Assembly (NCBI GenBank): GCA_002794035.1 | Contig: PCXQ01000004.1 | Span: 187,064 to 251,063, forward strand | Reading direction: 5' to 3' | Source: Candidatus Yanofskybacteria bacterium CG10_big_fil_rev_8_21_14_0_10_36_16 | Lineage (GTDB): Bacteria > Patescibacteriota > Minisyncoccia > 2-02-FULL-40-12 > IGHO2-01-FULL-4-A | Length of the DNA: 64,000 bases | In this document: piece after piece, positions 5,919 through 44,752 of the stretch | How the letters are laid out: each line of letters begins with the position of its first letter | Numbering within the stretch: the stretch's first letter is position 1 | Position numbers and translations under genes: made by a program | The notes under the pieces: model-generated | Database searches by the model: none | The model's input: the letters and a program-made list of their open reading frames with translations, nothing else | What the model was told of the DNA's origin: nothing

Positions 5919-5927
5919 TATTAACCT

Positions 5928-5960
5928 AAAACCCCTCCGCCTAAGGCGGAGGGGTTTTTA
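5928..5960. terminator. Bidirectional intrinsic terminator (AAAACCCCTCCGCC-TAA-GGCGGAGGGGTTTTT)
   Basis: Perfect GC-rich hairpin flanked by an A-run and a T-run, between convergent genes. Confidence 0.75.
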
Positions 5961-9403: not shown

Positions 9404-10024
9404 TTAAACCATACCGGATTTTACTCGCATTAGCGACACAAACGCTGACCTTTCCTGTTCGTTAAGCTTTGCAGTAATATATTTCATGGTTTCCTCAATA
9501 TTTGGGATCAGAACATGTTCCAAAGCATTAACTCTTCGGCGGGTTTTTTCTATTTCTTCTGCTAAAAGTTTTGCCGAGTGTTCGGTTTCAGCAAGTTCTA
9601 CCATATTTTTTAATGTTTTTGAAAATACTCTCAAAGCCCTGTCCATGCTAGAGCTGGTCGTAAATAAATCATAGGACAATATTTGTCCTTCTTCTTTATA
9701 TTCAAATTGGGGAACCTGAACACCCATAACATTTTTTGCCTCAGCTTTAAGACTTATTTTTTGACCCGGCGAATAAAAAGATTCTTTAATTACAGATCTT
9801 CTCATCTTGGCCGAGCTGAAAATAAACGAGAAAAACGCTAACCCTAAATCACTTTCAATCACCTCTCTCAAATCACGAGCTTTCTTAATTATGCTCATGA
9901 AGTGTTTCATCAAGCCATCGCGCTTCTCTTTAAGGAGCTTGTATCCCCTTCTGGCGGTTACCAACTTGGCCCTTAATTTTAAGAGCTCTTGGCGAGTAGG
10001 ATTTACATTTAGCTTGTTGGCCAT
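9404..10024 (-). CDS. atpD: A/V-type ATPase subunit D
   Basis: MANKLNVNPTRQELLKLRAKLVTARRGYKLLKEKRDGLM is the canonical V/A-ATPase D N-terminus. Confidence 0.85.
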   Translation of the reverse strand: MANKLNVNPTRQELLKLRAKLVTARRGYKLLKEKRDGLMKHFMSIIKKARDLREVIESDLGLAFFSFIFSSAKMRRSVIKESFYSPGQKISLKAEAKNVMGVQVPQFEYKEEGQILSYDLFTTSSSMDRALRVFSKTLKNMVELAETEHSAKLLAEEIEKTRRRVNALEHVLIPNIEETMKYITAKLNEQERSAFVSLMRVKSGMV

Positions 10025-10040
10025 AATTTAAATTAGATAA

Positions 10041-11429: not shown

Positions 11430-11445
11430 ATTACTTTATATTAAA

Positions 11446-13188
11446 TTAATTTTTAAAATTAAAACCATTAGACATATTTTTAATAAGTTCTTCTAGCTCT
11501 CCGAGTTTTTCTTCCGGCACAAACTTAGCTCTAGCAATTTTTTCCTTTAGATCTGTTGGAATTTCTTTCAAATTAACCCCTTTATCAAGAGCTCCTTCGG
11601 ACAGTCTGTGCATAGTTATTATCGCCTTTAAAAGCAAGTACATTTTTCTAACTGAACTATAAGTATCAACATCATCAAAAGCGTTCTGCTGTAAAAAGTC
11701 CTCTCTTATTGATTTTGCAGTCTCAAGAGTTAACTGCTCTTTTTCCGACAATGCCTCAATACCTACCAAGCGAACAATTTCCTGAAGCTTAGACTCTTCT
11801 TGCAATATTTCCATTGCTTTAATTCTTACATCACGCCAATCATCACCGGCGTTTTGAACCATGAATTTTCCTATCTCATCTAAATATAAAGAGTAACTGT
11901 TTAGCCAGTTAATTGCCGGGAAGTGCCTGCGGTATGCAAGCTGTGCTTCTAATCCCCAAAAAACCTTAACGACTCGCAAGGTGTTTTGGGTTACCGGCTC
12001 AGACAAGTCGCCACCCGGAGGAGATACAGCACCAATAACTGTAAGAGAACCGGTTCTATCCTCAGTGCCTAGACACCTAACATAACCAGCTCTTTCATAA
12101 AAACTTGCTGTCCTTGAACCCAGATAAGCAGGATACCCTTCTTCACCAGGCATTTCTTCCAGCCTTCCTGACATTTCACGAAGTGCTTCAGCCCAGCGAG
12201 ATGTAGAATCAGCCATCAAAGCCACATTGTAACCCATGTCTCTAAAGTATTCAGCAATTGTAATACCTGTATAAACAGATGCTTCACGAGCAGCAACGGG
12301 CATGTTTGATGTGTTGGCTATCAAAATAGTTCGTTCCATCAATGGTCTTCCGGTTTTTGGATCCTTAAGTTCGGGAAATTCCAACAAAACATCTGTCATT
12401 TCATTCCCTCTTTCACCACATCCTATAAAAACAATAATGTCGGCATCTGACCACTTGGCCAGCTGGTGTTGAACAACAGTTTTACCGGAACCAAACGGAC
12501 CGGGCACACAAGCTGTGCCTCCTTTTGCCACAGGGAAAAATGCATCTATAACCCTTTGGCCTGAGATTAACGGCTCAACCGAAACCAGCTTTTCTTTAAC
12601 AGGTCTTGGCTCTCTAATTGGCCAAACCTGCATCATTGAAATCTCCTTACCGCCTACAACCGCTATGGGTTCGGTTACTGTAAAACTGCCCGATTCAATT
12701 TTTTCTACTTTTCCAAAAATACCGGGAGGAATCATTATCTGGTGCTTAAACAAATCAGTCTCCTGAACTTCACCAAGAGGATCTCCGGGTGAAACAATAT
12801 CTCCGGATGAAACAACAGATTTAAACTGCCACTTCTTTCCGCGATCAAGTGCGGGAACCTCTACTCCTCTTTCAATAAATGGAGAGTTGCTTGATTCAGC
12901 AATTCCCGGAAGCGGACGCTGAACACCATCATATATGCTTCCCAAAAGACCGGGACCCAACTCCACCGAAAGAGGCATGCCGGTTGTGCTAACCGGATCA
13001 CCAGGCATCAAACCTGCAGTATCCTCATAAACCTGAATTGATGCCACATCGCCATGAAGTTCAATTATTTCACCAACTAATCTTTTATCGGATACCTTAA
13101 CAACATCATAAAGCTTAGCATTTTCCATGCCTGAAGCCTCTACAAGCGGACCTGAAACTTTTTTGATTGTACCTGTTTTTGTATTCAT
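11446..13188 (-). CDS. atpA: A/V-type ATPase catalytic subunit A
   Basis: Walker [10 protein letters not shown]. 580 aa with the non-homologous insert typical of A-subunits. Confidence 0.9.
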
Positions 13189-13216
13189 ATTAATTATTTT
13201 AATTATTAATTAATTA

Positions 13217-13537
13217 TTAATTTGATAAAATGTCCGACCCTACTGCTTTTTCTACTATCTTTTTTATATTTGCCAAACCGGCACCTGTTGAACCCTTGTG
13301 GGATGGAACAGCAATCAATGCCGGCAAGGCTCTTTTTGATAGCTCGCTAACAGCGCCTGATAGTTTGACATACCAGTCCTCGGTAATAAATATCACTCCG
13401 TAATTTCCACTATCGCAAAGCTTAATAAGTTCTTCCAGTGTTTTTTCAATAGTTTCCGCAGGGACGACATCTAAACCTAGGGCTTTAAACCCTATTACTG
13501 CTTCACCTGATCCAATTATTGCTATTTTATAATCCAT
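13217..13537 (-). CDS. atpF: A/V-type ATPase subunit F
   Basis: MDYKIAIIGSGEAVIGFKALGLDVVP is typical of subunit F. 106 aa. Confidence 0.8.
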   Translation of the reverse strand: MDYKIAIIGSGEAVIGFKALGLDVVPAETIEKTLEELIKLCDSGNYGVIFITEDWYVKLSGAVSELSKRALPALIAVPSHKGSTGAGLANIKKIVEKAVGSDILSN

Positions 13538-13549
13538 GGTAATGTTAGG

Positions 13550-14542
13550 TTATATAGCCCTTAGTGTTCTCTTTATCTCGCCTGAATCAATTTCATTCAT
13601 TTTGCCTGCCATTATCAAACGAATATTGATAACAGCAGAATGTTTCCTCTGGAAATATGAATAAACTTGTTCCGGTCCATAACTTAAATATCGCGCTTGA
13701 TTAATATATGAAATAAAATAATTATCTAAATCACGTTCAAACTCAAATAAATTTTTGTTTTCTAAATACTCGCGCAACGATTCTTTAACTTCATTGCTCT
13801 CATAACTTGCCAAAAAATTTGTGACACCGTCTTCCCCGCTCTCATAGGCAGTCATCAACTCACCAACGCTCCAAAAAGAATTATCACTCAACATTTTTTT
13901 AAATTCATTAGCCGGCAATTCAAATCTAAGAGCTCTCATAAAAGCAATCACTGTCGCATTACTTATTTTAATTTGAATAGATCTTTTAATAAATTCATTG
14001 CCCAAATTGTCGGCAATTTCATATTGCATTTGATACATGGCTTTAGTAACAGCAACATCTACTATCCAGGGCGCGCCAGAATTTGCTTCAACTTCTTTTT
14101 CTACAGCCACAATCAAATCTTTAAATTTTTCATCAAGGAACATAGACTTCCTTTCATTCATATAAGACTTAATGTCTTCCGGCGGGTAAACAGTCTCTCC
14201 TTCAAAACTTTCAACCTCTTTTACGCCTAAATATTTTTCTTTAAGCAAAAGACGCAAATTCAGAAAATCCCTCTCAATAAACAACAACCGAAAAAGGTCA
14301 TAATCTGGAATATCGCGTTTTAAAAATTCATAAAGCTCTGTAAAATCTTTCCTCATAGCATCTCTGTATTGTGCTGGCTCAAGATCTAATAAATTATCCG
14401 CGTAATCTGTATCATTTAAAACTCTGTAAGCATCATCAAAAGAAGGAGCATCAACCATGCGTTCTATATCTGTGTGATCGAGCATCTTTGACTCACGAGA
14501 CCAGACAAGAGAGCTAATTGTAATATATTTATCAGAATTCAA
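13550..14542 (-). CDS. atpC: A/V-type ATPase subunit C (eukaryotic d-like)
   Basis: ~330-aa helical protein in the operon position of subunit C. Confidence 0.7.
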   Translation of the reverse strand: MNSDKYITISSLVWSRESKMLDHTDIERMVDAPSFDDAYRVLNDTDYADNLLDLEPAQYRDAMRKDFTELYEFLKRDIPDYDLFRLLFIERDFLNLRLLLKEKYLGVKEVESFEGETVYPPEDIKSYMNERKSMFLDEKFKDLIVAVEKEVEANSGAPWIVDVAVTKAMYQMQYEIADNLGNEFIKRSIQIKISNATVIAFMRALRFELPANEFKKMLSDNSFWSVGELMTAYESGEDGVTNFLASYESNEVKESLREYLENKNLFEFERDLDNYFISYINQARYLSYGPEQVYSYFQRKHSAVINIRLIMAGKMNEIDSGEIKRTLRAI

Positions 14543-14563
14543 TTTATTGTTTATGAATTGTTA

Positions 14564-15133
14564 TTAATTATTTTTAAAAATATTTTCTGCTATTTCTTCT
14601 TTCATTTTTTCGCTAGCGCTTACTACCAATGCCTTATATGTCATATCAACCTCAATCCTATCCGTCCTGTAAACAAACCCGCCTGAAACACCCAAGATTT
14701 CATTGGAAATTTTGTCGTTTCGACCGCTCTTGCCAAGGGCTTTCTCGAGTATATTCTTGTTGTTGCCTGCACCAAACAATATACCTTCCGTTTTGGGCAG
14801 TTTCTTTAATGCTTCAGCCAAAAGCCCAACCTGTTTTTCTTCACTCATTTCTGACAAAAGATTCTCTGCTTTGTTAAAGACATCATTTAAGACTTTAACT
14901 TTTTTATCAAGAATCTTTGCAGAACCTTTTAGCTTAAAATTAAATAAAGCACTTTGTGTTTTACTTATAAGTTCCCTTCGTTTCTTTTCCAAAAGTTCTT
15001 TTCTGCGATTGCCTGTTTTGATATCCCACTCCGAAACTAGCGCTTCATATTTTTTAGCGTACTCTCCTTTTATTTCATCCGCCTTTGCCTCGGCGTCAGA
15101 TTTAATAGATTTTAATATATCAGATAAAGCCAA
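14564..15133 (-). CDS. atpE: A/V-type ATPase subunit E (peripheral stalk)
   Basis: 189-aa charged coiled-coil N-terminus (MALSDILKSIKSDAEAKADEIK...) plus globular C-terminus. Operon position fits. Confidence 0.75.
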   Translation of the reverse strand: MALSDILKSIKSDAEAKADEIKGEYAKKYEALVSEWDIKTGNRRKELLEKKRRELISKTQSALFNFKLKGSAKILDKKVKVLNDVFNKAENLLSEMSEEKQVGLLAEALKKLPKTEGILFGAGNNKNILEKALGKSGRNDKISNEILGVSGGFVYRTDRIEVDMTYKALVVSASEKMKEEIAENIFKNN

Positions 15134-15226
15134 GTTTTAATTAAACATTTAACCATTTCGACATTTAAGCAAGCTGAATTTATGCCAATTGTTTTTATGT
15201 TTAGATGTTTAGATATTTATGTAATA

Positions 15227-15700
15227 CTAAACTGTTATACCAAATATCAAAAGAATGCTGATAAGCAACCCTAACACAGCGTATGTCTCTACCATAGCAG
15301 AAAGAATAATTGCCTTACCCATGGCCTTTGGCTGTGTTGCCACTATTTTCATGCCTGAAGCAGATACCTTTCCTTGGTACCAACCTGAAGAAAAACCAGC
15401 GATAGCAATGGGCAAAGATGCGAAAAGCAAGCTCAAGCCATTACTCATTGTCAGTGCGACAATCTCTCCTCCAAACAGCCCGATTTTCTGTAATATTAAA
15501 AATGCTACCAAAAAACCGTAAATACCCTGTGTGGCTGGAAGGGCCTCAAGGACCAAAACCTTCCCGAACTTATCGGGGTCTTCTGATATAACGCCAGCGC
15601 CGGCCTGACCAGCAGCACTAACGCCGAGAACCGAACCAGCACCAGCAAAACCAACTGCCAATCCTGCTCCCAAAATAGCCAATGAAATTCCTAATTCCAT
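15227..15700 (-). CDS. atpK: A/V-type ATPase proteolipid subunit K (c-ring)
   Basis: 157-aa double-hairpin proteolipid with Gly/Ala-rich TM helices (GAGLAVGFAGAGSVLGVSAAGQAG). Confidence 0.85.
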   Translation of the reverse strand: MELGISLAILGAGLAVGFAGAGSVLGVSAAGQAGAGVISEDPDKFGKVLVLEALPATQGIYGFLVAFLILQKIGLFGGEIVALTMSNGLSLLFASLPIAIAGFSSGWYQGKVSASGMKIVATQPKAMGKAIILSAMVETYAVLGLLISILLIFGITV

Positions 15701-15807
15701 AATTAATTAAACTTACAATATACAACCTACAAATCACAAAGAGTCTTGAAATTTGTGAGTTGAAATTTGTGAGTTATTTTTGTTAAATTTTATTTTTAAA
15801 AACTAAA

Positions 15808-17760
15808 TTATTTTTCGTTAAATTGTATATATTTGCTTTCCATCTTCATGGGCTGAAATGCCCTTCCTCCACCTTCCATAAATTTTGGGAAAAACTCTAT
15901 ATACTGTAAACGTCCTGAATGAATAAATGCGCCCAAAGCGTTAATGCCGATATTAAACACATGCCCACCAATCAAAACCAAAAGACCGGCCAGCCAGCCA
16001 ACAAAAGGCATCTCCATCGCAAGCCCAGCAACAATATTTACTACCATACCGATAATGCTCGTGGTTAATCCTAGTGCGAGCAAACGTGAATAAGACAAAA
16101 CATCTGAAAAATATCCGACAACATCATAAAGCCCTAAAACTCCAATTGGCAATCCCAGCAATTTGTTTTTCTCGGCCATCCATTTTGATACCACAATTCC
16201 AACAGCTATCAAAAGTGTCAGATACTTAAATGGCACAGCAAGAGCTACTGGCAAAAGCCCTCCTGAAGAGGCGGCAAAAACCAAAAGTGAAATAAGCCCA
16301 ATCAGCCACAAACCGCTTCCCAACAAAGCACTCTTAATCTTTCCTTTTTTTATCTGCCACCATGTATTAATACCGAGGCCGAACAATACCTGAATTATTC
16401 CTAAAACCAAAGAAAGATAAAGTATGGCAATCGGATTTTCAAGAGGATTTAATATTTGCATTGATTCAAGTGGACCTCTGAGGAACCCTGGCATCTTCGA
16501 AAGTTCAACACCGAACCATCCGCCAAATACAGCGCCCAAAACAACCGATGCAATACCTCCCCAAAACACCACTCCGAATAATCCTCTGTCTTCTTTTGGA
16601 ATTTTAAATATTTTTACCGCAAGATATGAGATTAAAGCCAAAACAATACCATACCCAGCATCAGTAATAGCTAAACCAAAAAACAAAGTGAAAAATGGAG
16701 CCAAGAAGGGTGTTGGGTCTGGCTCTGAAGGCTGAGGCATGCCATACAAACTAGTAACAGACTCGAAAGGCTTACTCCAAGTATTTTTAAACTTAACAGG
16801 AGGAACCTCTTCATCATTGGCCCCTATCTCTTCTATGTGATACAGCGTTGTAATTTGAGCCAAAGACACATTGAGCTCATCAATATTTTCCTTATCTATC
16901 CAACCATAAATTGTGAAAGTAGAATTTGTTTTACCTTCTTTCTGCTCGTTTTCAGCTCTCATCTTTTGCCAACTCAAAAAATCATGAACAATTTTAAGTT
17001 CTCTTTCGTGTCTAGAAAGCTTGCCCGCTTCTTTTTTCAAATCATTAAGCTCTGTTGAAGATTCTTTGATTTTATTATTTAAATTTTCAACATATTCAGA
17101 AACACCCATATCAAGCTTGGGTAACTCCATCTCCCTTACCTGCATTGTCTCAAATAAAGCCTTTAACTTATCTTCATCTTCTTCCTTGTGAATTACATAA
17201 CTGTATAATTCTTGGTTTTCGATATTAGTTTTTTCAAAGGCAGAAAAAGGTAAATCTCTTGAAATATTGTCCGAAAATTCATCAACGCTTTTTTCAGACA
17301 ATAAAATAAAAGATATCTTATATCCAGCAGGCAACTCTTTGCCCGGTATTATATTAAGACTGTGCCATGGCCTTAATATATTGATTTCTGAATTGTTTTT
17401 GTCTATTAAATTAACTCTCTTGTTGATTTGTTCCTCTAAATCCTTTGATTCCTTCACAACCGTCTGATAATCAAAACTTTCTGCTGTTTTAATGGCATCC
17501 TTACGGCTAATAAAAATTCCACTTTCGAGGAATTTTTTAATACCTTTCTGGGGTGGTTTATAAAGCGCAATGAAATCTAGAGCAAATCTTAACTCAGCAA
17601 TGTTGTAATCTAAACCAGAAACAATATGGCTTCGGATTTCCTCTCCCCCATCTTTCTCACTCTCTATCTGAACAACCTCAAGTTCCTGAATTTTTTTCAG
17701 TATTTCATCGTGTTCCTTTTCAAGGGCGGTAATTTTTATTTTTACAATATCAGCAAGCAC
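15808..17760 (-). CDS. atpI: A/V-type ATPase subunit I (a-subunit, stator/proton channel)
   Basis: 650 aa. N-terminal coiled-coil cytoplasmic half and C-terminal multi-TM half with a conserved Arg-containing helix (YSRLLALGLTT). Confidence 0.85.
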   Translation of the reverse strand: MLADIVKIKITALEKEHDEILKKIQELEVVQIESEKDGGEEIRSHIVSGLDYNIAELRFALDFIALYKPPQKGIKKFLESGIFISRKDAIKTAESFDYQTVVKESKDLEEQINKRVNLIDKNNSEINILRPWHSLNIIPGKELPAGYKISFILLSEKSVDEFSDNISRDLPFSAFEKTNIENQELYSYVIHKEEDEDKLKALFETMQVREMELPKLDMGVSEYVENLNNKIKESSTELNDLKKEAGKLSRHERELKIVHDFLSWQKMRAENEQKEGKTNSTFTIYGWIDKENIDELNVSLAQITTLYHIEEIGANDEEVPPVKFKNTWSKPFESVTSLYGMPQPSEPDPTPFLAPFFTLFFGLAITDAGYGIVLALISYLAVKIFKIPKEDRGLFGVVFWGGIASVVLGAVFGGWFGVELSKMPGFLRGPLESMQILNPLENPIAILYLSLVLGIIQVLFGLGINTWWQIKKGKIKSALLGSGLWLIGLISLLVFAASSGGLLPVALAVPFKYLTLLIAVGIVVSKWMAEKNKLLGLPIGVLGLYDVVGYFSDVLSYSRLLALGLTTSIIGMVVNIVAGLAMEMPFVGWLAGLLVLIGGHVFNIGINALGAFIHSGRLQYIEFFPKFMEGGGRAFQPMKMESKYIQFNEK

Positions 17761-29242: not shown

Positions 29243-29282
29243 ACCCCGAAAGGGATCTGACCCCTTTCGTTATTTTAAAATT
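29243..29282 (+). terminator. Intrinsic terminator (CGAAAGGG-atctgac-CCCTTTCG + TTATTTT) closing a GC-rich noncoding segment
   Basis: 8-bp GC hairpin plus T-run. Confidence 0.55.
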
Positions 29283-29350
29283 TTGATTTTGGTATAAAAG
29301 TATGTTAAATAATTTAATATACTTAAGTACTTTGACAAAAGGAAGAAAAA

Positions 29351-30874
29351 ATGCCAAAAAAATATACCCCGGGAAAACCCGGTGAATTTCCATTTACACG
29401 AGGAACCCGATCTCTAGGGTATCAAGATCCTAAGAAAAAGTTTTGGACAATGAGAATGTTCTCTGGTTTTGGATCTGCTGAAAACACTAATGAGCGTTTT
29501 AAAAAACTATTATCCGAAGGTGAAACTGGATTGTCAACCGCATTTGATATGCCCACCCTTTTAGGACTTGATTCTGATGATCCTAGGGCCAAATGGGATA
29601 TCGGAAAGGGAGGGGTCGCAGTTTGTACTCTCGAGGATATGGAAGTCCTTTTCAAAGACATACCATTAGACAAAGTTACAACCTCTATGACAATAAATGC
29701 TCCTGCTGCAGTTTTATTGGCAATGTATATTGCTGTTGCAGAAAAAAAAGGGATTTCAAAGAATCAAATTGGAGGAACAATCCAAAATGACATTTTAAAA
29801 GAATATATTGCTCAAAAAGAGTGGATTTTTCCCCCATTACCTTCAGTGCGTTTAATAGTTGATACGATTGAATATTGTTCTGAATTTGTACCACGCTGGA
29901 ACACTGTTTCAATCTCCGGCTACCACATTCGAGAGGCAGGAGCTACAGCAGTACAGGAATTAGCTTTTACTTTGGCAGATGGCATAGCCTATGTCGAAGC
30001 ATGTATAAAAAGAGGCTTGCGAATTGATGATTTTGCGTCCAGACTTTCTTTCTTTTTTGATTTTCACAATAATTTTTTTGAAGAAATAGCAAAATTAAGA
30101 GCCGCCCGATATTTATGGGCACACATTATTAAAGAAAGATTCGGCGCACAAAACACGAGATCGATGATGTGTAGAATGCACGTCCAAACTGCAGGCTGCA
30201 CACTAACTCACCAACAACCCTTGAACAACATCGTCAGAGTAGCAATACAAGCTCTGGGTGCGGTTTTGGGGAATACCCAATCACTACACACAAATTCTTA
30301 TGATGAAGAATTGTGCCTACCCTCCGAGGAAGCTGTCATAATTGCCTTGCGTACTCAGCAAATAATTGCCCACGAAACAGGCATTGCAAATGTTCCTGAT
30401 CCCCTTGGTGGCTCTCCCTACATAGAAGGTCTCACCAAAAAATTGATAGAAGACGCACGAGATTATATAAAAAAAATAGATGACATGGGAGGCATGATAA
30501 AAGCTATTGAAAAAGGTTTTCCTCAAAAAGAGATACGAGACTCGGCTTGGCTTGATAAAAAGTTTCAAGACGATAAAACCAAAATCGTAGTTGGTGCAAA
30601 TAAATTTAATGACACATCAGAAGAAGAAAGTTGTGGAAATTTTGAAATTGATCCTCAAGCTCAAACACGTCAACTAGAAAGACTTAAAGCTTTCAAGGCA
30701 AGAAAAAATTCTAAATTAGTTAAAGAATCTTTATTAGAAATAAAAATTGCGGCTATGGAAAATAAAAACCTGATGCCCTATTTAATTGAAGCTGTAAAAA
30801 ACAACGTTACTCTTGGTGAAATTTGCACCAGTTTAAAAAAGGTATTTGGAGAGTATCAGGAGGTGGCAAATTGA
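29351..30874 (+). CDS. B12-dependent acyl-CoA mutase large subunit (methylmalonyl-/isobutyryl-CoA mutase substrate-binding TIM barrel), lacking a B12 domain
   Basis: FPFTRGTRSLGYQ...FWTMRMFSGFGSAENTNERFKKLLSEGETGLSTAFDMPT matches the MCM/ICM N-terminal barrel. Confidence 0.85.
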   Translation: MPKKYTPGKPGEFPFTRGTRSLGYQDPKKKFWTMRMFSGFGSAENTNERFKKLLSEGETGLSTAFDMPTLLGLDSDDPRAKWDIGKGGVAVCTLEDMEVLFKDIPLDKVTTSMTINAPAAVLLAMYIAVAEKKGISKNQIGGTIQNDILKEYIAQKEWIFPPLPSVRLIVDTIEYCSEFVPRWNTVSISGYHIREAGATAVQELAFTLADGIAYVEACIKRGLRIDDFASRLSFFFDFHNNFFEEIAKLRAARYLWAHIIKERFGAQNTRSMMCRMHVQTAGCTLTHQQPLNNIVRVAIQALGAVLGNTQSLHTNSYDEELCLPSEEAVIIALRTQQIIAHETGIANVPDPLGGSPYIEGLTKKLIEDARDYIKKIDDMGGMIKAIEKGFPQKEIRDSAWLDKKFQDDKTKIVVGANKFNDTSEEESCGNFEIDPQAQTRQLERLKAFKARKNSKLVKESLLEIKIAAMENKNLMPYLIEAVKNNVTLGEICTSLKKVFGEYQEVAN

Positions 30875-31980
30875 CTACAAAAATATTGCTGGTAAAGGGT
30901 GGACTAGATGGTCATGATCGTGGAATTCAAATTGTGACTAAGGCTCTGAGAGATTCTGGTTTTGATGTAATTTATGGTGGCCTTTATTGTTCTCCCGAAG
31001 AAATAGCAGCAATAACCATTCAAGAAAATGTCGATGTGGTTGGAATTTCCACACACAGCGGAAATCATCTGGGTATTTTTTCAGAAACCATAAAAATTTT
31101 AAAAGAAAAAACAAATACCCACTGGCCCATTATTGGCGGAGGAATTATTCCAGCAAACGACATCCCCGCTCTTGAGAAAATGGGTGTAGATAAAATTTAT
31201 TTACCAAGTACTAACATTACAGAAATTGTTGAATTCATAAAGGGGCTGAAGTTAATGAAAAGAAAAAAAGAATCACAACAAAAAACAATTGAAAGAATTT
31301 TAAAAGGAGAAGTTTTTGCGGCAGCGTCTTTAATGTCATTAGTTGAACAAGGCGACAATAACGCAAAGAAAATAATTTCTAAATTACCAGATTTATCCCC
31401 CCAAACTATTGTAGTTGGCATAACTGGCTTCGGCGGCGTTGGAAAAAGTACTTTAATTAACAAACTTATCGAACATTTCAGAAAGGACAGAAAAACTGTT
31501 GGGGTTATAGCATGTGACCCAGTGAGTGTTTCCCGTGGTGCAGTTATGGGAGACAGAATAAGAATGAAAGATCACGCCCAAGATGAGGGTGTTTTTATAA
31601 GAAGTATTGTTCAACGCCAAAATTTCAAAGGAGTAACACCGACAACCCCATCAATTATAAAAATTTTGGGAGCAATGAAAAAAGATATAATAATTGTCGA
31701 AACTGCTGGAGCCGGACAGGAAAATTCAGGATTTAAAGACCTCGTAAAAGTTTTAGTATGGGTTTCTGTTCCCGGACTTGGTGATAAAATCCAAATGCTT
31801 AAGGGTGGAGGTATTGAAACTGCCAATATTATAGTTGTAAACCAATCGGATAAAGCAGCCTCGTATTTGACATTTCAAGATCTTAAAGAACATTTTGAAA
31901 ACACCAAAAAAATATGCAAAACCAATTCTCTGACAGGAGAAGGCATTTCCGAATTAGTCAAAGCAATAAAAGTGGTTTAA
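30871..31980 (+). CDS. Cobalamin-binding domain fused to MeaB/ArgK-type G-protein chaperone (acyl-CoA mutase small subunit-MeaB fusion)
   Basis: KILLVKGGLDGHDRG (DxHxxG B12 motif) then P-loop GITGFGGVGKST. Probable TTG start at 30871 with AGGAGGTG 5 nt upstream, overlapping the upstream TGA (TTGA). Confidence 0.8.
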   Translation: MTTKILLVKGGLDGHDRGIQIVTKALRDSGFDVIYGGLYCSPEEIAAITIQENVDVVGISTHSGNHLGIFSETIKILKEKTNTHWPIIGGGIIPANDIPALEKMGVDKIYLPSTNITEIVEFIKGLKLMKRKKESQQKTIERILKGEVFAAASLMSLVEQGDNNAKKIISKLPDLSPQTIVVGITGFGGVGKSTLINKLIEHFRKDRKTVGVIACDPVSVSRGAVMGDRIRMKDHAQDEGVFIRSIVQRQNFKGVTPTTPSIIKILGAMKKDIIIVETAGAGQENSGFKDLVKVLVWVSVPGLGDKIQMLKGGGIETANIIVVNQSDKAASYLTFQDLKEHFENTKKICKTNSLTGEGISELVKAIKVV

Positions 31981-32081
31981 AAATAAACCGCTTTTTTATT
32001 TAATTTAAACTGTCCAATTCCTAATAAAAACAACAAAATGGACACTCGTACATTTTTAGGTCTTTATTGTTGTACTACAGC

Positions 32082-32375: not shown

Positions 32376-32702
32376 TTATCCAAACACTAAAACCTTATCT
32401 GACTCATCAATCATTTTTACCAAATCGATCATAGTGGTTATAGGACAAACCTTACTTTCGGATTTAGAACGAATTTTAAGACAAGTCTCGCAGGCCACAA
32501 GAACACCTTTTAGGTCTTTGAACTCCTGGATTCTCTTGGAGATATCAAACTGTTCAGTATCAGAAATGTCTTCAACTTCAACTCCTTCATTCATAAGAGA
32601 GATTTTAACCGAATGACCCGCTTTTAATGCGGTAATGGCTAAACGAAATGTATTCCAGATATGTTCTGGATTTTTAGATTGTAAAATAATGCCGATTTTC
32701 AT
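32376..32702 (-). CDS. DsrE/DsrF-like family protein
   Basis: MKIGIILQSKNPEHIWNTFRLAITALKAGHSVKISLMNEGV fits the DsrE/TusD-like fold. 108 aa. Confidence 0.55.
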   Translation of the reverse strand: MKIGIILQSKNPEHIWNTFRLAITALKAGHSVKISLMNEGVEVEDISDTEQFDISKRIQEFKDLKGVLVACETCLKIRSKSESKVCPITTMIDLVKMIDESDKVLVFG

Positions 32703-32704
32703 AA

Positions 32705-32926
32705 TTATTTCCTAGCCCACATCCAAAACCTCTCATGCAGATAATAAACTAGGGTTAATATAATACCAGCAACTACGGAAATTTCTCCCGACTTCTTGAT
32801 TTCCCCGGTATACACATAAACAACCACGCCAGTAATAATCATGGCGAATATTCTCCAACTTACTGCTTTTATTATAGGTCGAACACGATTGTTCCGAACC
32901 ATCGCTCTGATAAAATTTATCGTCAT
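32705..32926 (-). CDS. Small membrane protein (DUF2061-like)
   Basis: 73 aa, 2 TM, basic N-terminus. Confidence 0.35.
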   Translation of the reverse strand: MTINFIRAMVRNNRVRPIIKAVSWRIFAMIITGVVVYVYTGEIKKSGEISVVAGIILTLVYYLHERFWMWARK

Positions 32927-32932
32927 AAGTAT

Positions 32933-33616
32933 CTAACTTAAATCTTTTTTCTTTTCCTCAAATTCTTTTTTATCAATCTCGCCACGGGCATAGCGTTCTT
33001 TTAGAACATCTAGGGCAGATTTGGAACCTCCGTTTCTGCCTTGGCTCATCAACCATTTTACAAGAGCAACTATGCCAGCAATAATCAGAGCCCACCATAA
33101 AAACATAAAAATAAAACCGAGACCCCCGAAACCACCAAAACCAAAATTCATCATATTGTTTGTTGAATTATTATTGCCGAAGGGAGACGACCACCCTCCC
33201 CACATCATATTCATCATGGGCATCCAACCACCGCTTATTGCCGGGAATGCCGCCGAAGTATCACAACCAGAAAGACGCTTGCCCATAACGATATGAATTT
33301 GTTCTTCACCGTCTTCACCGTGTGCCTGAATCATCATAGCGTTCATGGCGACGTGAGATTCACCAGCCATCTGTCCCATAAAATACTCGCCAAGAACTCC
33401 ATACTGCTCATCATTTAGATCGGCACAAACAACCTCTTTTGCCTGAAGTTTATTCCAAAGTTCTTTGCCTTCTTGTTCTTCGCGAGCAGTGTGCTCAACA
33501 ACCTCGTTCCAATCAACAGAAGTATTGGAAAACCCACCCATCATTTGGGCGTTGACTGCAGATGTTATTACTAGAAGGGCACCGAAAATAAATATTGCAA
33601 GTAGTGTGTTTTTCAT
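32933..33616 (-). CDS. Secreted Met/His/Gly-rich protein with C-terminal TM helix and SHOCT domain (possible metal-binding)
   Basis: Signal peptide MKNTLLAIFIFGALLVITSAVNA, the most likely start. The longer ORF to 33703 would run into repeat copy B. Met-rich MPMMNMMWGG / HVAMNAMMIQAH. C-terminus DVLKERYARGEIDKKEFEEKKKDL is a SHOCT motif. Confidence 0.5.
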   Translation of the reverse strand: MKNTLLAIFIFGALLVITSAVNAQMMGGFSNTSVDWNEVVEHTAREEQEGKELWNKLQAKEVVCADLNDEQYGVLGEYFMGQMAGESHVAMNAMMIQAHGEDGEEQIHIVMGKRLSGCDTSAAFPAISGGWMPMMNMMWGGWSSPFGNNNSTNNMMNFGFGGFGGLGFIFMFLWWALIIAGIVALVKWLMSQGRNGGSKSALDVLKERYARGEIDKKEFEEKKKDLS

Positions 33617-33654
33617 AAGATAAATATAGCACACCTTACTCTTTCTAGCCATAT

Positions 33655-33810
33655 TTTTCCGACCGAACGTGCGACTAAGCGAGAGCGAGGAAGTACTGAG
33701 CAAAGTGAGTGAATGAAAGTGAATGAATACTGAGGTTAGCAGGCCGAACGTGCAGTGCGAAGTAGATTAGACAGAATTATTGGACATATTATGTGCCCAA
33801 ATTGGAAAAG
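33655..33810 (+). repeat. Imperfect direct repeat copy B (~155 nt, carries a 47-nt internal insertion/duplication)
   Basis: See copy A. Followed by hairpin AAGTGCG-cagttat-CGCACTT. Confidence 0.7.
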
Positions 33811-34557: not shown

Positions 34558-34632
34558 TGGCTCCGGGAGCAGGACTCGAACCTGCAACCATCTCCTTAAC
34601 AGGGAGCCGCTCTACCATTGAGCTATCCCGGA
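34558..34632 (-). tRNA. tRNA-Asn (anticodon GTT), CCA encoded
   Basis: Minus strand: TCCGGGA-TA-GCTC-AATGGT-AGAGC-G-GCTCC-CTGTTAA-GGAGA-TGGTT-GCAGG-TTCGAGT-CCTGC-TCCCGGA-G-CCA. Confidence 0.85.
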
Positions 34633-34868
34633 ATGTTGTTATCTAGCCATTTTCTACCTTGGCCAGACTTCAAAAAACGTTCTCTCGTTATCGCTTCTTT
34701 TTTAGTATTGAATTCTTCTGAGTGAATTAGTACGAATGGGCCATTTGACCTAGTCCATCTGTTACTACCAGCATTATGCTCCTTTAATCTATTAAAAACA
34801 TTTTTTGAAGTTTGACCAATATATCTCTTATTATTTTTGTTACTTCTCAATACGTAAACATAAAACAT
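34623..34868 (-). CDS. GIY-YIG nuclease family protein (YhbQ/UPF0213-type, Slx1-like)
   Basis: MFYVYVLRSNKNNKRYIGQTSKNVFNRLKEHNAGS matches the YhbQ GIY-YIG pattern. The last codons and stop (TAG) lie inside the tRNA-Asn 5' end. Confidence 0.75.
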   Translation of the reverse strand: MFYVYVLRSNKNNKRYIGQTSKNVFNRLKEHNAGSNRWTRSNGPFVLIHSEEFNTKKEAITRERFLKSGQGRKWLDNNIPG

Positions 34869-35167: not shown

Positions 35168-37351
35168 TTAAAACTCTAAAAGCTTACTTAAACCAGAAAC
35201 AATTTTACCAACCGTAGGGAGATAAAGCTCTTCAAGCTCTGGTGAAAATGGTACTGGCGTGTCTTCAGCTGCAATCAATACAACTGGTGCATCCAAATCC
35301 TCAAAAGACTCTTCGCTAATTCTACTCACTATCGTTTGGCCAAAACAACCAGTTTTAGATGCTTCGCATGTTACCAAAACTCTGCTAGTTTTTTTGATTG
35401 ACTCAGAAATGCATTCAAAATCAACAGGAATTAAAGATCTCAAATCTATAATCTCTATTGTCTTGCCTGTTTCGGCTTCCACTCGCTTAACCGCTTCAAT
35501 AGCTCTAAACATCTGAGAGCCATAACTAATAACAGTTGCATCTACCCCCTCTTTTAAAATTCTAGCCCTACCAAAAGGAACAGTATAATCGCCTTCAGGA
35601 ACTGGGGTGTTGAGCTCGGGAGGAATCATGCCGGATTCCGGATTTAAATTATAAATCCCCTTATATTCTACAAAAATTACAGGACTGTCATCTAATATAG
35701 CAGAATTTAGCAAACCCCTTGCATCAAATGATGTTATGGGAGCAACAATCTTAAAACCCGGCGTAGAGGCAAACCATGATTCTGGGTGAGCACTATGAAA
35801 AGAAGATGAGCCCTTGGTCCAGCCAGAAGGCATCCGGAAAACAATTGGCATTGGACCGAAACCTCTAGCAATCTGATTGGCTACAAAATTTACCATAATC
35901 ATAAAAGCAGATGATGAAAAATCAGCAAATTCAAATTCAACAATAGGTCTGAGATTTAAATAAGTAGATCCCACAGCCATTCCAACTATTCCTGATTCAG
36001 CTAAGGGCATATCAATTACACGCCTTTGATAAATTTTGTTAATTTTATAAAAATCTTCTGGCCATTCAATATTATCAAAAATACGAGAAAGTCCTTCTGT
36101 AACCTTAAATGCACCACCACTTAATCCAATGTCTTCTCCTAGAAGAATCACATTGGGGTCTTTTGTCATTCTTGTTATTAATGCTCCCCTGATTGCTTCA
36201 CGGTATGTAATTAAATCTCCATTGTTTGGAGGTAAAACAATTTCATTTTCGTGAACAATCTCAGGCATAAAAATAGACCTCCTGATATCTTTCACTTTTG
36301 GTCCAGAGCATTTTTCAGATCGCGCCAAATCTTCTTTAACAGTTTGTTCTGCCCTTTCTTCAATTTGATCAAGAGTCTTATCATCAACTTGGAATTCATC
36401 GGTAAGACGTTTTAACAAAGCATCAACAGGATCCTTTTTTCTCCACTTCTCTAGCATTTCTTCTGGCACATATTTGTGACTATCAGCAAGTGAATGTCCC
36501 GCCATTCTCATGGTTTTTGCAACAATAATAGAGATGATTTTTTCATTTCTTGCACGATCAAGAGCCCTAGAAACAGTGTTATAAACCATACCAACATTCG
36601 TACCATCAATTAAAAATCCTTCCACATTTCTGCCATAACCCAAAGCCCTGAGAGCTAAAGTTGGAGACCTAAATTCAAAAAAGTTAGGAGTACCAAATGC
36701 CCATTGATTGTTTTCGATTACAACAACCATAGGCAACTCTTTTACAGCTGCAATATTCAATGCTTCATGCACAATACCAATACTAGTTGCTCCATCTCCT
36801 AAAAAAGCCAGTACAGCATCCTCGGAATTGTGAAAATTTATTCCAAAAGCACAACCTGAAGCAATTGGCAACATTATGCCCAAGTGGCTAACAAAAGGAA
36901 TTATTCTTTTTTCAAAATCTCCAAAATGGAGGCTAGCATCCCAACCATGAGTAGGGCCATCTTTTTTTGCACAGATCTGGCACATTATTTCGTAAGGTGT
37001 TAGTCCGCGGACCAAATGAGTGCCTAGGTCCCGAATGGCTGGTGCAAACCAATCTTCTTTTTTGAGTGCATAACCAGCACCAACAGCAGTTGCTTCATTT
37101 CCTAAACTTGAAAGATGCTTGCCCAATGCCTTACCTTTTTTGATCAAAAGTTTAATTTCTCTCTCTGTCTTTCTGGTAAGATGCATATAGTAATACAATT
37201 CTTTATACAGTTCCCTTAAATCACATTGAGATTCAGTAACAACTTGAGATTCTATACCCTCAGCAGATATACGATAAACAACATCGTTTAAATCTTTAAA
37301 AGGATCAATCTTCTCTAATTTTCTATACATTTCTGCAAAATATCTGGGCAT
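35168..37351 (-). CDS. 2-oxoacid dehydrogenase E1 component, fused alpha-beta subunits (TPP-dependent)
   Basis: N-terminal half carries the E1-alpha TPP motif (LGDGATSIGIVHEALNIAAV...ENNQWAFGT). C-terminal half is transketolase-like E1-beta. 727 aa. Confidence 0.8.
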   Translation of the reverse strand: MPRYFAEMYRKLEKIDPFKDLNDVVYRISAEGIESQVVTESQCDLRELYKELYYYMHLTRKTEREIKLLIKKGKALGKHLSSLGNEATAVGAGYALKKEDWFAPAIRDLGTHLVRGLTPYEIMCQICAKKDGPTHGWDASLHFGDFEKRIIPFVSHLGIMLPIASGCAFGINFHNSEDAVLAFLGDGATSIGIVHEALNIAAVKELPMVVVIENNQWAFGTPNFFEFRSPTLALRALGYGRNVEGFLIDGTNVGMVYNTVSRALDRARNEKIISIIVAKTMRMAGHSLADSHKYVPEEMLEKWRKKDPVDALLKRLTDEFQVDDKTLDQIEERAEQTVKEDLARSEKCSGPKVKDIRRSIFMPEIVHENEIVLPPNNGDLITYREAIRGALITRMTKDPNVILLGEDIGLSGGAFKVTEGLSRIFDNIEWPEDFYKINKIYQRRVIDMPLAESGIVGMAVGSTYLNLRPIVEFEFADFSSSAFMIMVNFVANQIARGFGPMPIVFRMPSGWTKGSSSFHSAHPESWFASTPGFKIVAPITSFDARGLLNSAILDDSPVIFVEYKGIYNLNPESGMIPPELNTPVPEGDYTVPFGRARILKEGVDATVISYGSQMFRAIEAVKRVEAETGKTIEIIDLRSLIPVDFECISESIKKTSRVLVTCEASKTGCFGQTIVSRISEESFEDLDAPVVLIAAEDTPVPFSPELEELYLPTVGKIVSGLSKLLEF

Positions 37352-37457: not shown

Positions 37458-38894
37458 TTGTTCTATGCTATTATTTATGTAATGGATAATTACCCCAAAC
37501 TACAAGAAAAAGAATTGCCCAAACCGCCTCACTGGACTAAGGCCATAGGCGTTGGTGTCGTTGTAACAGGTCTTGCAATAGGAACAGGAGAACTCATTTT
37601 GTGGCCACACCTAATAACAAAACATGGCCTTTCTCTTTTGTGGTTGGCTCTTATCGGAATAACCTGCCAATATTTTATAAACAGAGAAGTTGCGCGCCAC
37701 GAAGTAGCTACAGGCGAAAGCTTCTTCACTACTTCAGCTCGGATCATTCAGTGGTCTGTATTTTTTTGGCTTTTTTCAGCTATTGCACTTTATATCTGGC
37801 CGGGCTGGGCCTCAGCCATTGCTACAACACTAAAAGAGCTCTTTGGATTTGGGAGCCACCTTGGATGGTCATGGGCAACACTAGCTTTAGTTTTGGTACT
37901 AACTTTTAGCGGAAAAGTGGCATATAGCATGCTTGAAAAATCACTAAAGATAACTGTGCCGACATTCTTTGTACTTTTGTTAGTTATCAGTTATTTGAAT
38001 TTATCATGGGGAGAAATTAAAACAGCATTAGCTGGGGTAGTTGCTTTTGGCACGATACCTGAAGGCGTTGATATAAACGTCCTACTGGGCGCTATTGTTT
38101 TTGCAGGTGCAGGAGGAATGCTTAACCTGACAGTATCTTTGTGGTACAGAGACAAACAAGTAGGCATGGGAAATTATATAGGCCGTGTTGTTAACCCAAT
38201 AACAGGCAAAAAAGAAGCTGTTACAGCAACAGGTTTTAAATTTGACACAAACAATAAAGCAAACATGCAAAACTGGCGAGGTTGGATGAGATACGTAATG
38301 ATAGACCAAGGATTAATATTCTTATGTCTTGGATTTGTAACCTTGTTCCTACTTAGCGTAAATGCACACTCGGTTCTCTCCCCTATGGGACTAGTGCCTG
38401 AAGGTCTTGAAATAGCTGTTGTCCAAGCAAATATTTTTGGAAACATATGGGGACCAATAGGATTTAAATTGTTCCTTGTTATGGCGTTCTTGATGTTATT
38501 CTCTGTAATGTGGACCGTAATAGATGCTTTAACAAGAATGGTATCAGATATTATTTACACCAACGCAAGAGAAGGCAAATACAAAGGAGTGTTTAGGGTA
38601 TTTAACAAATTCTCCATAGGACAGCTTTATTATGGAGTTATAGTAATCGTAGCTATCATTGGGGCTTTTCTTATACCGCTAAAACAACCCCTTACACTTT
38701 TAGTAATATCGGGAGTTTTATCTGGTCTAACCATGGCTATTTATACTCCATTCCTTATATACATAAACAACAAACACTTACCTAAACCACTAAGACCTTC
38801 GTGGTTTACAAATGTTGCCATGAGTGGAATTTCAGTTTTCTTCATGTACTTTGCTTATAAAGTTATCGTTGATGCATTTACTAAAATAATATGA
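37458..38894 (+). CDS. NRAMP-family-like membrane transporter (probable divalent metal transporter)
   Basis: 11-12 TM. The HGLSLLWLALIGI..EVARHEVATGESF segment resembles the NRAMP FGYSLLWVLLLSN..LAARLGIVTGKDL region. Confidence 0.45.
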   Translation: MFYAIIYVMDNYPKLQEKELPKPPHWTKAIGVGVVVTGLAIGTGELILWPHLITKHGLSLLWLALIGITCQYFINREVARHEVATGESFFTTSARIIQWSVFFWLFSAIALYIWPGWASAIATTLKELFGFGSHLGWSWATLALVLVLTFSGKVAYSMLEKSLKITVPTFFVLLLVISYLNLSWGEIKTALAGVVAFGTIPEGVDINVLLGAIVFAGAGGMLNLTVSLWYRDKQVGMGNYIGRVVNPITGKKEAVTATGFKFDTNNKANMQNWRGWMRYVMIDQGLIFLCLGFVTLFLLSVNAHSVLSPMGLVPEGLEIAVVQANIFGNIWGPIGFKLFLVMAFLMLFSVMWTVIDALTRMVSDIIYTNAREGKYKGVFRVFNKFSIGQLYYGVIVIVAIIGAFLIPLKQPLTLLVISGVLSGLTMAIYTPFLIYINNKHLPKPLRPSWFTNVAMSGISVFFMYFAYKVIVDAFTKII

Positions 38895-44299: not shown

Positions 44300-44752
44300 A
44301 TGAAGATAATCAAACTTAACAACATTATTGGAACTTCCCAAGAGGCCAAGGTGCCGGGTGACCAAGGGTCAAGCAGGCGCCTGCTTTTGGCAAAAGATGG
44401 CTTGGGGTATTCATTTCATGACACAATTATTACTGCAGGAGCTGAAATGAGACTTCACTACACCAATCACATAGAAACAGTATATTGCGTTTCAGGAAAC
44501 GGCGAGGTTGAAGATCTAACCACCAAGAAACGTCACAAAATTGAAGAAGGTGTTATGTATGTTTTAGATAAACACGATGACCACATTTTACATGGTGGAA
44601 CTGAAGATATGCGCCTAATTTGCATATTTACCCCAGCTCTTGTAGGAAATGAGCGCCAAGACGAAAGCGGAAGCTTTCCCATAATGAATGAGGTCTTGCA
44701 GGAAATAAAACAAATTAAAGAAAAAGTTGAAAAAATTGAAGAACAACTTTAG
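44300..44752 (+). CDS. EctC-like cupin (ectoine synthase family), solitary
   Basis: LHYTNHIETVYCVSGNGEVEDL...GVMYVLDKHDDHILHGGTEDMRLICIFTPALVGNERQDESG parallels the EctC core. No ectA/ectB nearby. Confidence 0.6.
   Translation: MKIIKLNNIIGTSQEAKVPGDQGSSRRLLLAKDGLGYSFHDTIITAGAEMRLHYTNHIETVYCVSGNGEVEDLTTKKRHKIEEGVMYVLDKHDDHILHGGTEDMRLICIFTPALVGNERQDESGSFPIMNEVLQEIKQIKEKVEKIEEQL

Follow-up and report, generated by a model that had tools for sequence, protein, structure and literature searches.

The DNA analysed here, referred to below as the window, is a stretch of 64,000 nucleotides (nt) from Candidatus Yanofskybacteria bacterium CG10_big_fil_rev_8_21_14_0_10_36_16 (contig PCXQ01000004.1, positions 187,064 to 251,063). 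Two adjacent genes on its plus strand, at 29351-31980, encode the substrate barrel of a B12-dependent acyl-CoA mutase and a B12-binding domain fused to a MeaB-type GTPase (G) domain. Judging from their sequences, the two genes probably specify a real and functional mutase of the isobutyryl-CoA mutase (ICM) type. The features of the locus are as follows (aa, amino acids; MCM, methylmalonyl-CoA mutase; HCM, 2-hydroxyisobutyryl-CoA mutase).

29247..29269, T-runs on both strands: terminator-like G+C-rich hairpin, closing the upstream units
29270-29350: AT-rich stretch after this hairpin, presumed promoter
29351..30874, plus strand: large subunit, IcmA-like, a 507-aa acyl-CoA mutase substrate barrel without B12 domain (profile matches)
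29459..29461, plus strand: codon TTC of Phe37, at the position of Tyr89 (P. shermanii MCM) and Ile90 (HCM)
29813..29815, plus strand: codon of Gln155, at the position of MCM Arg207
29921..29926, plus strand: Tyr191-His192, equivalents of the catalytic Tyr243-His244 of MCM, kept
30858..30865, plus strand: Shine-Dalgarno (SD) sequence AGGAGGTG, within the 3' end of the barrel gene, 5 nt ahead of TTG 30871
30871..31980, plus strand: small subunit fused to chaperone, 369 aa, B12 domain and MeaB-type GTPase (profiles, homologues, model)
30880..31245, plus strand: cobalamin-binding Rossmann domain, residues 4-125 (Pfam, TIGR00640)
30907-30924, plus strand: DGHDRG with the cobalt-ligand His15 (alignment)
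31306..31977, plus strand: MeaB/MeaI-type G domain, residues 146-369 (profile matches, alignment)
31426-31452, plus strand: P-loop GFGGVGKST
31510-31566, plus strand: switch I region, motif DP...GDRIRM
31690-31722, plus strand: switch II region, motif ETAGAGQ
31768-31812, plus strand: switch III region with Q308 and K311, motif GDKIQMLKGG
31840-31851, plus strand: NQSD in place of NKxD
31968..32005, plus strand: terminator-like hairpin (31968-31995) and T-run, overlapping the stop codon of the fusion; end of the two-gene operon

The open reading frame (ORF) called at 29351-30874 on the plus strand encodes 507 aa. The sole Pfam match of this protein is PF01642 MM_CoA_mutase (E 4e-203), which covers residues 6-500 and profile positions 24-512 of 512, and its score against TIGR00641 (706 bits) is above the cutoff of 303.8. 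A B12 domain is absent from the barrel in Pfam and NCBIfam profile searches.

The second ORF is open from TTG 30823 to TAA 31980, and encodes 369 aa when counted from TTG 30871. It matches PF02310 (B12-binding, residues 4-116) and PF03308 (MeaB, residues 153-367) in Pfam, and TIGR00640 over residues 3-124 (123 bits, cutoff 57). The B12 domain is almost directly joined to the N-terminal helices of the MeaB part, with the match to NF006958 beginning at residue 129. The score against the MeaB equivalog TIGR00750 (184 bits) is below the cutoff of 240.75, the Pfam MeaB match ends at profile position 232 of 273, and the protein terminates 2 residues past the last residue matched by the MeaB models; thus, there is no C-terminal tail. 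This is the general state of such fusions: the tail after the G-domain model has a median of 1 residue in 112 fusions (7 of which are exceptions to the short-tail rule) versus 73.5 residues in 88 stand-alone MeaB-like proteins. We take the lost tail to be the dimerisation arm of MeaB, and the G domain of IcmF, a single-chain mutase described below, presumably also lacks it.

Motif conservation was scored in an alignment of 27 fusions. D13, H15 and G18 of DxHxxG are invariant, as are G186, G189, G191, K192 and S193 of the P-loop; conserved positions are D216, P217, G223, D228, R229 and R231 in switch I, E277, G280, G282 and Q283 in switch II, and P301, G304, D305, Q308, K311 and G313 in the switch III stretch. 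The window fusion has the P-loop and switches I, II and III that mark a MeaB/MMAA chaperone. In its base-specificity motif, NQSD, the Asn and Asp are kept and Lys is replaced by Gln; relatives carry NQSD, NKAE, NKAD and others. The fusion is colinear with IcmF residues 55-397 (E 1e-39), and its Q308 and K311 align with Q341 and K344 in switch III of IcmF, where the position of Q341 is pinned by the Q341A chain 8ssl. In an AlphaFold2 (AF2) model of the fusion (pLDDT 91.3, pTM 0.91), the whole chain superimposes on the N-terminal half of IcmF (TMq 0.87-0.88, root-mean-square deviation (rmsd) ~3.2 A), whereas against MeaB alone only the G domain is matched (TMq ~0.55-0.60). The modelled B12 domain fits HcmB with an rmsd of 1.1 A and 44% identity.

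The junction of the two genes reads AGGAGGTG (30858-30865), a GCAAA spacer, then TTGA, in which the start codon of the fusion (TTG, 30871-30873) overlaps the stop codon of the barrel (TGA, 30872-30874). Public gene calls start the fusion at TTG 30823 instead, giving 385 aa (P0001; PJE51130.1) and an overlap of 52 nt with the barrel gene. All 11 close relatives of the fusion start 0-7 residues ahead of the conserved K/R-[IV]-L-L strand. At the corresponding site, a relative from the Parcubacteria group (L082) shows AGGAGGT-5nt-ATG, an unambiguous start that leads into MQKKIRVLL; the SD and ATG of another relative, L084, are comparable. TTG 30871 is therefore favoured as the start, given its strong and optimally spaced SD, the starts of its homologues and that of L082. 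The first-pass annotation had proposed the same start, with a perfect SD and a TTGA overlap, and the junction and homologues agree with it; it had likewise described a 507-aa MCM/ICM barrel without a B12 domain, followed by a gene that fuses a DxHxxG B12 domain to a MeaB P-loop chaperone, as the PF01642, PF02310 and PF03308 matches and the motifs above confirm. A programmed frameshift joining barrel and fusion was also considered, and rejected in view of the strong SD and start codon at the junction and of the gaps of 11-24 nt, with their own SD and ATG, found in relatives.

In an operon-boundary check of the gene pair, no promoter-like enrichment was seen. The GC content of both genes, overall and at third codon positions (GC3), is that of the housekeeping genes of the window; the genes are thus native and not a recent import, and recent horizontal transfer was rejected on these grounds as an explanation of the locus.

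Specificity positions in the barrel were assigned by profile alignment, calibrated on Protein Data Bank (PDB) chains and one IcmF locus (L080, Vicinamibacteria). The Tyr89 column was identified from PDB chains 1req and 5req, which differ only at the Tyr89Phe site. Arg207 of MCM (in FMVRNTY) aligns with Gln155 of the barrel (in YIAQKEW), and the position of HCM Asp117 is occupied by Ala64. At the three positions of Tyr89, Asp117 and Arg207, both MCM references have Tyr/Ala/Arg and HCM (4r3u) has Ile/Asp/Gln, while the window barrel has Phe/Ala/Gln, the same triplet as the genuine three-domain IcmF of L080. This triplet is present in 119 of the 120 nearest barrels, and the equivalents of Tyr243 and His244 in all 120; the nearest barrels are 62-76% identical to that of the window and come from Bathyarchaeia, Aminicenantes, Thermodesulfobacteriota, Nitrospirota and others. 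Thus, the barrel has neither the Tyr89 and Arg207 of MCM (Phe37 and Gln155 stand there) nor the Ile90 and Asp117 of HCM (Phe37 and Ala64), but has the Phe and Gln of ICM at the positions of Tyr89 and Arg207. As in ICM, genes for a large (barrel) and a small (B12, DxHxxG) subunit lie side by side. Phe and Gln are reportedly a signature of ICM, and Arg207 of MCM is said to bind the carboxylate of the substrate. The specificity residues that the first-pass annotation had marked for checking therefore turn out to be IcmF/ICM-like, and the loss of catalytic residues that it had named as grounds for calling the barrel a pseudo-enzyme is not found, since Tyr191 and His192 are kept and the whole Pfam profile is matched. 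As far as its residues tell, the barrel is neither a pseudo-enzyme nor an MCM, and the enzyme most likely interconverts butyryl-CoA and isobutyryl-CoA, rather than acting as the MCM of its annotation.

Other pockets occur among the surveyed loci. In L043 (4343-6046) and L053 (4273-5997), the barrel pocket is Leu/Ile/Asn, Gln replaces Tyr243, and the gene order is B12, barrel, G. The L041 barrel (4131-5954) has Val/Ile/Gly and Asp in place of His244, and that of L081 (1783-3621) has an HCM-like Val/Asp/Gln. Going by these residues, the four barrels may represent other or new mutase specificities.

Relatives of the locus place the gene pair in a metabolic context and tell more than the window itself. 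In L082 and L083, the barrel is 76% and the fusion 57% identical to the window proteins, and the RelA encoded on the same contig is 76% identical to that of 'Parcubacteria group bacterium'; the L084 fusion (P0017) is 41% identical to that of the window. Relatives, one of them from the Parcubacteria group, hold the barrel and fusion genes within a butyryl-CoA beta-oxidation gene cluster, which is the enzyme set needed to process butyryl-CoA. Syntrophic degraders of isobutyrate follow the same logic, with an ICM cluster that supplies beta-oxidation (PMC5017805). Castelle et al. 2017 had earlier found it 'striking' that a Parcubacterium, Ca. Parcunitrobacter nitroensis, has a 'methylmalonyl-CoA mutase', and noted that the carboxylase and epimerase are missing and butyryl-CoA enzymes present (PMC5220378). 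The first-pass annotation had considered a B12 mutase unexpected in an organism of minimal metabolism. The host is indeed a reduced-genome bacterium of the candidate phyla radiation (CPR), and the surprise is fair, but the mutase of Castelle et al. is a precedent for it (PMC5220378).

To trace the layout, gene order was surveyed in 80 GTDB loci from a contig pattern scan, with ORFs scored by three purpose-built profiles; among the matches listed in that scan (at least 600), no relative exceeds 43% identity. The commonest order, seen in most of the 80 loci, is a barrel of ~560 aa, a B12 subunit of ~140 aa and a MeaB-like GTPase of ~320 aa, as separate adjacent genes. This three-gene order occurs in both Tyr/Arg and Phe/Gln flavours, the latter including L003, L039, L049, L055, L057 and L068, among many. 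Single-ORF fusions of the B12 and G domains (B12-G) are found in the window clade, in Planctomycetota/Phycisphaerae (L023, L025, L026, L028-L034, L036-L038) and in an 'uncultured bacterium' (L076). Barrels adjoining the Planctomycete fusions have Gln at the Arg207 position (L023, L028) and, where it is covered, Phe at the Tyr89 position (L028). In an exhaustive search of 1.84 billion representative sequences, of which the top 150 clusters (50% identity) were examined, B12-G fusions make up 29 clusters, recurring mainly in Planctomycetota. A further 4 clusters of the 150 are single chains in the order barrel-B12-G, 2 of them complete (P0401, 887 aa; P0426, 913 aa). Phe/Ala/Gln is found in both complete chains, which are short at the N-terminus and end without a C-terminal tail. 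Fusion thus recurs without being common, and belongs to a series that runs from three genes to one. P0401 and P0426 have what amounts to a 'reverse-order IcmF' architecture, of which we know of no description.

Identities place both halves of the locus nearer to stand-alone subunits than to IcmF. The barrel is 36.8% identical to the IcmF barrel, 48% to that of HCM and 62-76% to stand-alone Phe/Gln large subunits, and for the fused half the identity is 26% with IcmF and 33-47% with MeaB-like proteins that stand alone or with other fusions. In a neighbour-joining (NJ) tree of G domains (100 bootstraps), the window clade has full support (bootstrap 100), as nearly does its extension to P0017-P0019 (bootstrap 99). 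The deeper nodes, including the link to the Planctomycete fusions, have bootstraps of 21 or less, and the barrel NJ tree, with the same number of bootstraps, likewise has no resolution below the clade. Stand-alone short G proteins without a neighbouring B12 gene (P0013-P0016) fall within the window clade. The survey shows that the barrel-first order is the canonical operon order with the last two genes fused. The identities and the commonest gene order are explained most simply if the last two genes of that operon fused, rather than by a fission and permutation of IcmF. Thus, the layout would stem from the fusion of genes 2 and 3 of a widespread operon of barrel, B12 subunit and MeaB-like GTPase. 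The first-pass description, a split and reordered IcmF, is right about the domain set, which equals that of IcmF; it is not borne out as regards the splitting and reordering. As far as the sequences compared here indicate, the IcmF-like reading is partly supported, being apt for function and domain content but not as an evolutionary description.

Two further observations concern G proteins of this family. The stand-alone short G proteins at L088 (1181-2038), L089 (430-1185) and L090 (1179-1934) are 251-285 aa long and 56-60% identical to the window G domain; a search beside them found no upstream B12 or barrel gene, nor a degraded remnant. P0013 (L089, L090) has no C-terminal tail and P0016 (L088) retains ~45 extra residues. 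The short G protein gene of L089 shares its 3' end with an overlapping gene for an acyl-CoA dehydrogenase. In two very long proteins, P0374 (1918 aa) and P0376 (4508 aa), G domains are repeated, and after them come a Tyr/Arg (MCM-type) barrel and a B12 domain; these may be run-together gene models or genuine MMAA-MMUT-like fusions.

Among known systems, IcmF of Cupriavidus metallidurans (PDB 4xc6, 5cjt, 8ssl) is built from the same modules: a B12 domain, a MeaB-like G domain and a substrate barrel. The likeness extends to the Phe/Ala/Gln pocket (in the IcmF of L080), the order and predicted arrangement of the B12 and G domains, the Gln and Lys of switch III, and the covalent attachment of the G chaperone to its client B12 domain. 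However, IcmF consists of a single ~1,100-aa chain that runs B12-G-barrel, while the window has two chains, with the barrel gene first; the window proteins score 337 and 173 bits against the IcmF model NF045497, whose cutoff is 1500. On present evidence from alignment and gene order, the window pair does not appear to be derived from IcmF. Streptomyces cinnamonensis IcmAB has, like the window, separate barrel and B12 subunits and the Phe/Gln pair, and Slip_0757-0760 of Syntrophothermus lipocalidus share a predicted isobutyrate/butyrate isomerisation that feeds beta-oxidation (PMC5017805). Compared with such systems, which have IcmA, IcmB and a separate MeaB-like GTPase, the small subunit and GTPase of the window are one polypeptide, its GTPase is without the ~73-residue tail, its barrel is without ~41-46 N-terminal residues, and there is no adjacent adenosyltransferase. 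HcmA/HcmB of Aquincola tertiaricarbonis (4r3u) are likewise split into large and small subunits; among solved relatives, they score best with the barrel (E 5e-149, 48% identity) and also with the B12 domain.

MeaB stands alone, as a homodimer joined through a C-terminal arm. It is described as always dimeric (PMC10481361). The window G domain shares with MeaB/MMAA (PDB 2qm7, 8dpb, 8gju) the SIMIBI P-loop GTPase fold, the P-loop and switches I-III, and by analogy would be expected to do the same job, gating the loading and removal of adenosylcobalamin (AdoCbl). It differs from MeaB in being tied to its client B12 domain, in lacking the C-terminal tail and in having NQSD rather than NKxD. The B12-MeaB fusions of Planctomycetota and other phyla have the same ~375-aa B12-to-G layout without a C-terminal tail, but they are only 33-37% identical to the window protein and most are not beside a barrel gene. 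These fusions carry generic names such as 'cobalamin-dependent protein' and 'LAO/AO transport system ATPase'. The public entries for the cluster of the window fusion are PJE51130.1, 'hypothetical protein COV29_02550', and UniProt A0A2J0Q7S3, 'B12-binding domain-containing protein'.

We regard it as likely that both genes form one operon for a heteromeric AdoCbl-dependent mutase of the ICM type, with its small subunit fused to the GTPase chaperone. The public annotation of the barrel is different: its exact-sequence match at NCBI is PJE51129.1, 'methylmalonyl-CoA mutase', and UniProt likewise annotates MCM. Such an enzyme would serve a propionate pathway by making succinyl-CoA from methylmalonyl-CoA, and its small subunit would carry the fused MeaB. 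Apart from the name, the barrel has 44.7% identity to human MCM (E 1e-134) and scores 590 bits against NF006944, the equivalog model of MCM, the Tyr/Arg signature does occur in split barrel/B12/MeaB operons, and the Parcubacterial mutase of Castelle et al. was read as MCM (PMC5220378). However, the cutoff of NF006944 is 876 bits, Arg207 is replaced by Gln and Tyr89 by Phe, no carboxylase or epimerase is found near the mutase genes, and the pair in relatives sits with butyryl-CoA rather than propionate enzymes; an MCM is very improbable. A substrate that is different or broader (isovaleryl- or pivalyl-CoA, a hydroxylated C4-CoA or an undescribed short branched acyl-CoA), with Phe/Gln marking merely a non-carboxylate pocket, is unlikely. 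IcmF with the same Phe/Gln pair does convert isovaleryl-CoA and pivalyl-CoA (PMC9974510; PDB titles), the HCM large subunit is the nearest solved structure overall to the barrel, and the family has several further pocket signatures. Yet Ile90 and Asp117 of HCM are Phe and Ala in the window, so that a hydroxylated substrate is not expected; moreover, the triplet is identical to that of true IcmF, and the clusters of relatives are C4 beta-oxidation sets.

Descent from an IcmF gene that was split, with its barrel moved upstream, is extremely improbable. It would account for the three domains, the pocket residues, the superposition of the model on IcmF and a G domain that is tail-less, as IcmF's presumably is, but not for identities that are lower to IcmF in both halves (37% versus 62-76% for the barrel and 26% versus 33-47% for the fused half), nor for a gene order that is that of the commonest three-gene operon. 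Single chains in the same barrel-B12-G order (P0401, P0426) and stand-alone short G proteins within the window clade also argue against it. To our knowledge, CPR genomes lack B12 synthesis. Its absence was reported for one Parcubacterium by Castelle et al. 2017 (PMC5220378), and the locus could then be a non-functional relic in a reduced genome unable to supply or adenosylate B12, without pathway partners; in ~84 kb, no partner enzyme, adenosyltransferase, transporter or riboswitch is found. That search spans a part of the 288-kb contig of a metagenome-assembled genome, and both ORFs are intact, with all of the catalytic and nucleotide-binding motifs that are invariant in 27 homologues. With a strong SD, start-stop coupling, flanking terminators and native composition as well, we give hardly any credence to a relic.

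Several points weigh against the ICM reading or limit it. The neighbourhood, scanned over the window and 10 kb on either side (the ~84 kb above), has no beta-oxidation genes, with neither an acyl-CoA dehydrogenase nor a thiolase, no CoA-transferase/ligase, no adenosyltransferase or B12 transporter, and no cobalamin riboswitch (Rfam finds two tRNAs only). The N-terminus of the barrel is ~41-46 residues shorter than in ~560-aa homologues, which may affect assembly. The substrate call is drawn from two to three pocket residues and from the gene context of relatives, not of this genome, and the meaning given to the signature residues is in part general background. IcmF acts on isovaleryl- and pivalyl-CoA too, and therefore Phe/Gln fixes no single substrate. 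With NQSD in place of NKxD, nucleotide preference could differ. AF2 was probably trained on IcmF structures (inferred from their 2015 release), making the modelled domain arrangement weak evidence.

Domains, motifs, the gene overlap, the signature residues and the synteny in relatives are directly observed; the substrate, the GTPase mechanism and the physiological role are inferred from homology and context. As an ICM-type mutase, the enzyme would work as follows. The barrel would bind butyryl- or isobutyryl-CoA in the hydrophobic, uncharged Phe37/Gln155 pocket, which would be unable to accommodate the methylmalonyl-CoA carboxylate. In the second chain, the B12 domain would bind the cofactor base-off/His-on through His15 of DGHDRG and cap the barrel. 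The 1,2-rearrangement would then begin with Co-C bond homolysis, as it does in every class I mutase. The tethered G domain would use GTP to open the B12 domain for delivery of AdoCbl and to eject damaged cofactor. Being without a C-terminal tail, it is probably active by trans pairing with the G domain of another complex, the mode demonstrated for IcmF (PMC10481361). With its strong SD, the TTGA overlap would couple translation and favour equimolar synthesis of both chains. Judged by the relatives, the role of the enzyme would be to link isobutyryl-CoA, from isobutyrate or valine, with butyryl-CoA and then beta-oxidation, and B12 would have to be scavenged.

A gene for a fused E1 alpha-beta 2-oxoacid dehydrogenase lies nearby.

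35168..37351, minus strand: fused E1 alpha-beta 2-oxoacid dehydrogenase (E1_dh, Transket_pyr, Transketolase_C)

This is a genuine E1 alpha-beta fusion, as the first-pass annotation had held, although its distance is 3.2 kb from the end of the fusion gene and not 4 kb. Its best solved relative is the 2-oxo acid dehydrogenase E1 of Thermus thermophilus (1um9), with pyruvate dehydrogenase E1s nearly equal; 1um9 is presumably a branched-chain enzyme. It is conceivable that the E1 supplies isobutyryl-CoA from the keto-acid of valine, which would fit an ICM. However, no E2 or E3 is found in the window or within 10 kb of it, and the E1 fusion gene is absent from the loci of relatives. Of the fragmentary pathway that had been suggested from this neighbour, the propionyl-CoA/methylmalonyl-CoA part is not indicated, and the branched-chain part is weak in the absence of E2 and E3 and of a conserved linkage. 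A 478-aa ORF beside the E1 fusion (37458-38894) has no Pfam match.

The rest of the window holds housekeeping genes (RpoD, DnaG, several aminoacyl-tRNA synthetases, RNase J, NusB, RNase III), a V/A-type ATPase operon, MsrA, TspO and many unassigned ORFs. The ATPase operon (9404-17760, minus strand) is apparently complete, with I, c, E, C/AC39, A, B and D subunits. The mutase operon is closely followed by convergent genes at 32376-33703 (minus strand) for a DsrE-like protein and DUF2061 and SHOCT-domain membrane proteins, a trio also seen on contig L001. An ORF of 81 aa with a GIY-YIG nuclease domain overlaps tRNA-Asn by 10 nt at its 3' end (features at 34558-34632 and 34623-34868, both minus strand). 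In the isoleucyl-tRNA synthetase (1157 aa; 55389-58862, minus strand), two parts of the catalytic domain are separated by an inserted histidine-phosphatase domain (His_Phos_1, residues 491-661), and an independent contig (L085) shows the same insertion. At 44300-44752 on the plus strand lies the gene for a lone ectoine-synthase-like cupin (PF06339, E 5e-46), with the other ectoine genes not nearby.

In the reachable literature, no description of the B12-G fusion architecture was found, and IcmF figures there as the notable exception of a G-protein metallochaperone fused to its client (PMC10481361). Public databases already contain the architecture, where the names given to it are generic or wrong. 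To trap the active state, a minimal 'B12 domain + MeaB' system was engineered by the Drennan laboratory (PMC9974510); the natural 369-aa chain is the same minimal pair, recurs in several lineages with its tail almost always lost, and would offer a compact object for testing tethering as a substitute for chaperone dimerisation. More broadly, the tail-less B12-G fusions could be a distinct class of self-chaperoning small subunits, tied in the cases that can be scored to ICM-type (Phe/Gln) mutases, in which homodimerisation of the chaperone would be replaced by tethering it to its client. They would then form a series from three genes, through two as in the window, to one chain (barrel-B12-G, or B12-G-barrel as in IcmF). 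Reduced-genome Parcubacteria would also have a B12-dependent route between isobutyrate or valine and butyrate, and at least some 'methylmalonyl-CoA mutases' of CPR bacteria would be misassigned ICMs. Taken jointly, these propositions are tentative, and slightly likelier to fail in some part than to hold throughout.

For the metabolic reconstruction of CPR bacteria, pocket residues and the context of relatives point to isomerisation of butyryl- and isobutyryl-CoA, which would change the pathway assigned to the annotated gene. With an ICM, no propionyl-CoA carboxylase or methylmalonyl-CoA epimerase need be postulated, and the enzyme would be tied to the rare short-chain acyl-CoA oxidation genes of some Parcubacteria. 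In ecological terms, scavenging of corrinoids by a CPR bacterium would be implied. The locus does not overturn current understanding but extends a known theme, and is of modest interest for B12 enzymology and CPR metabolism.

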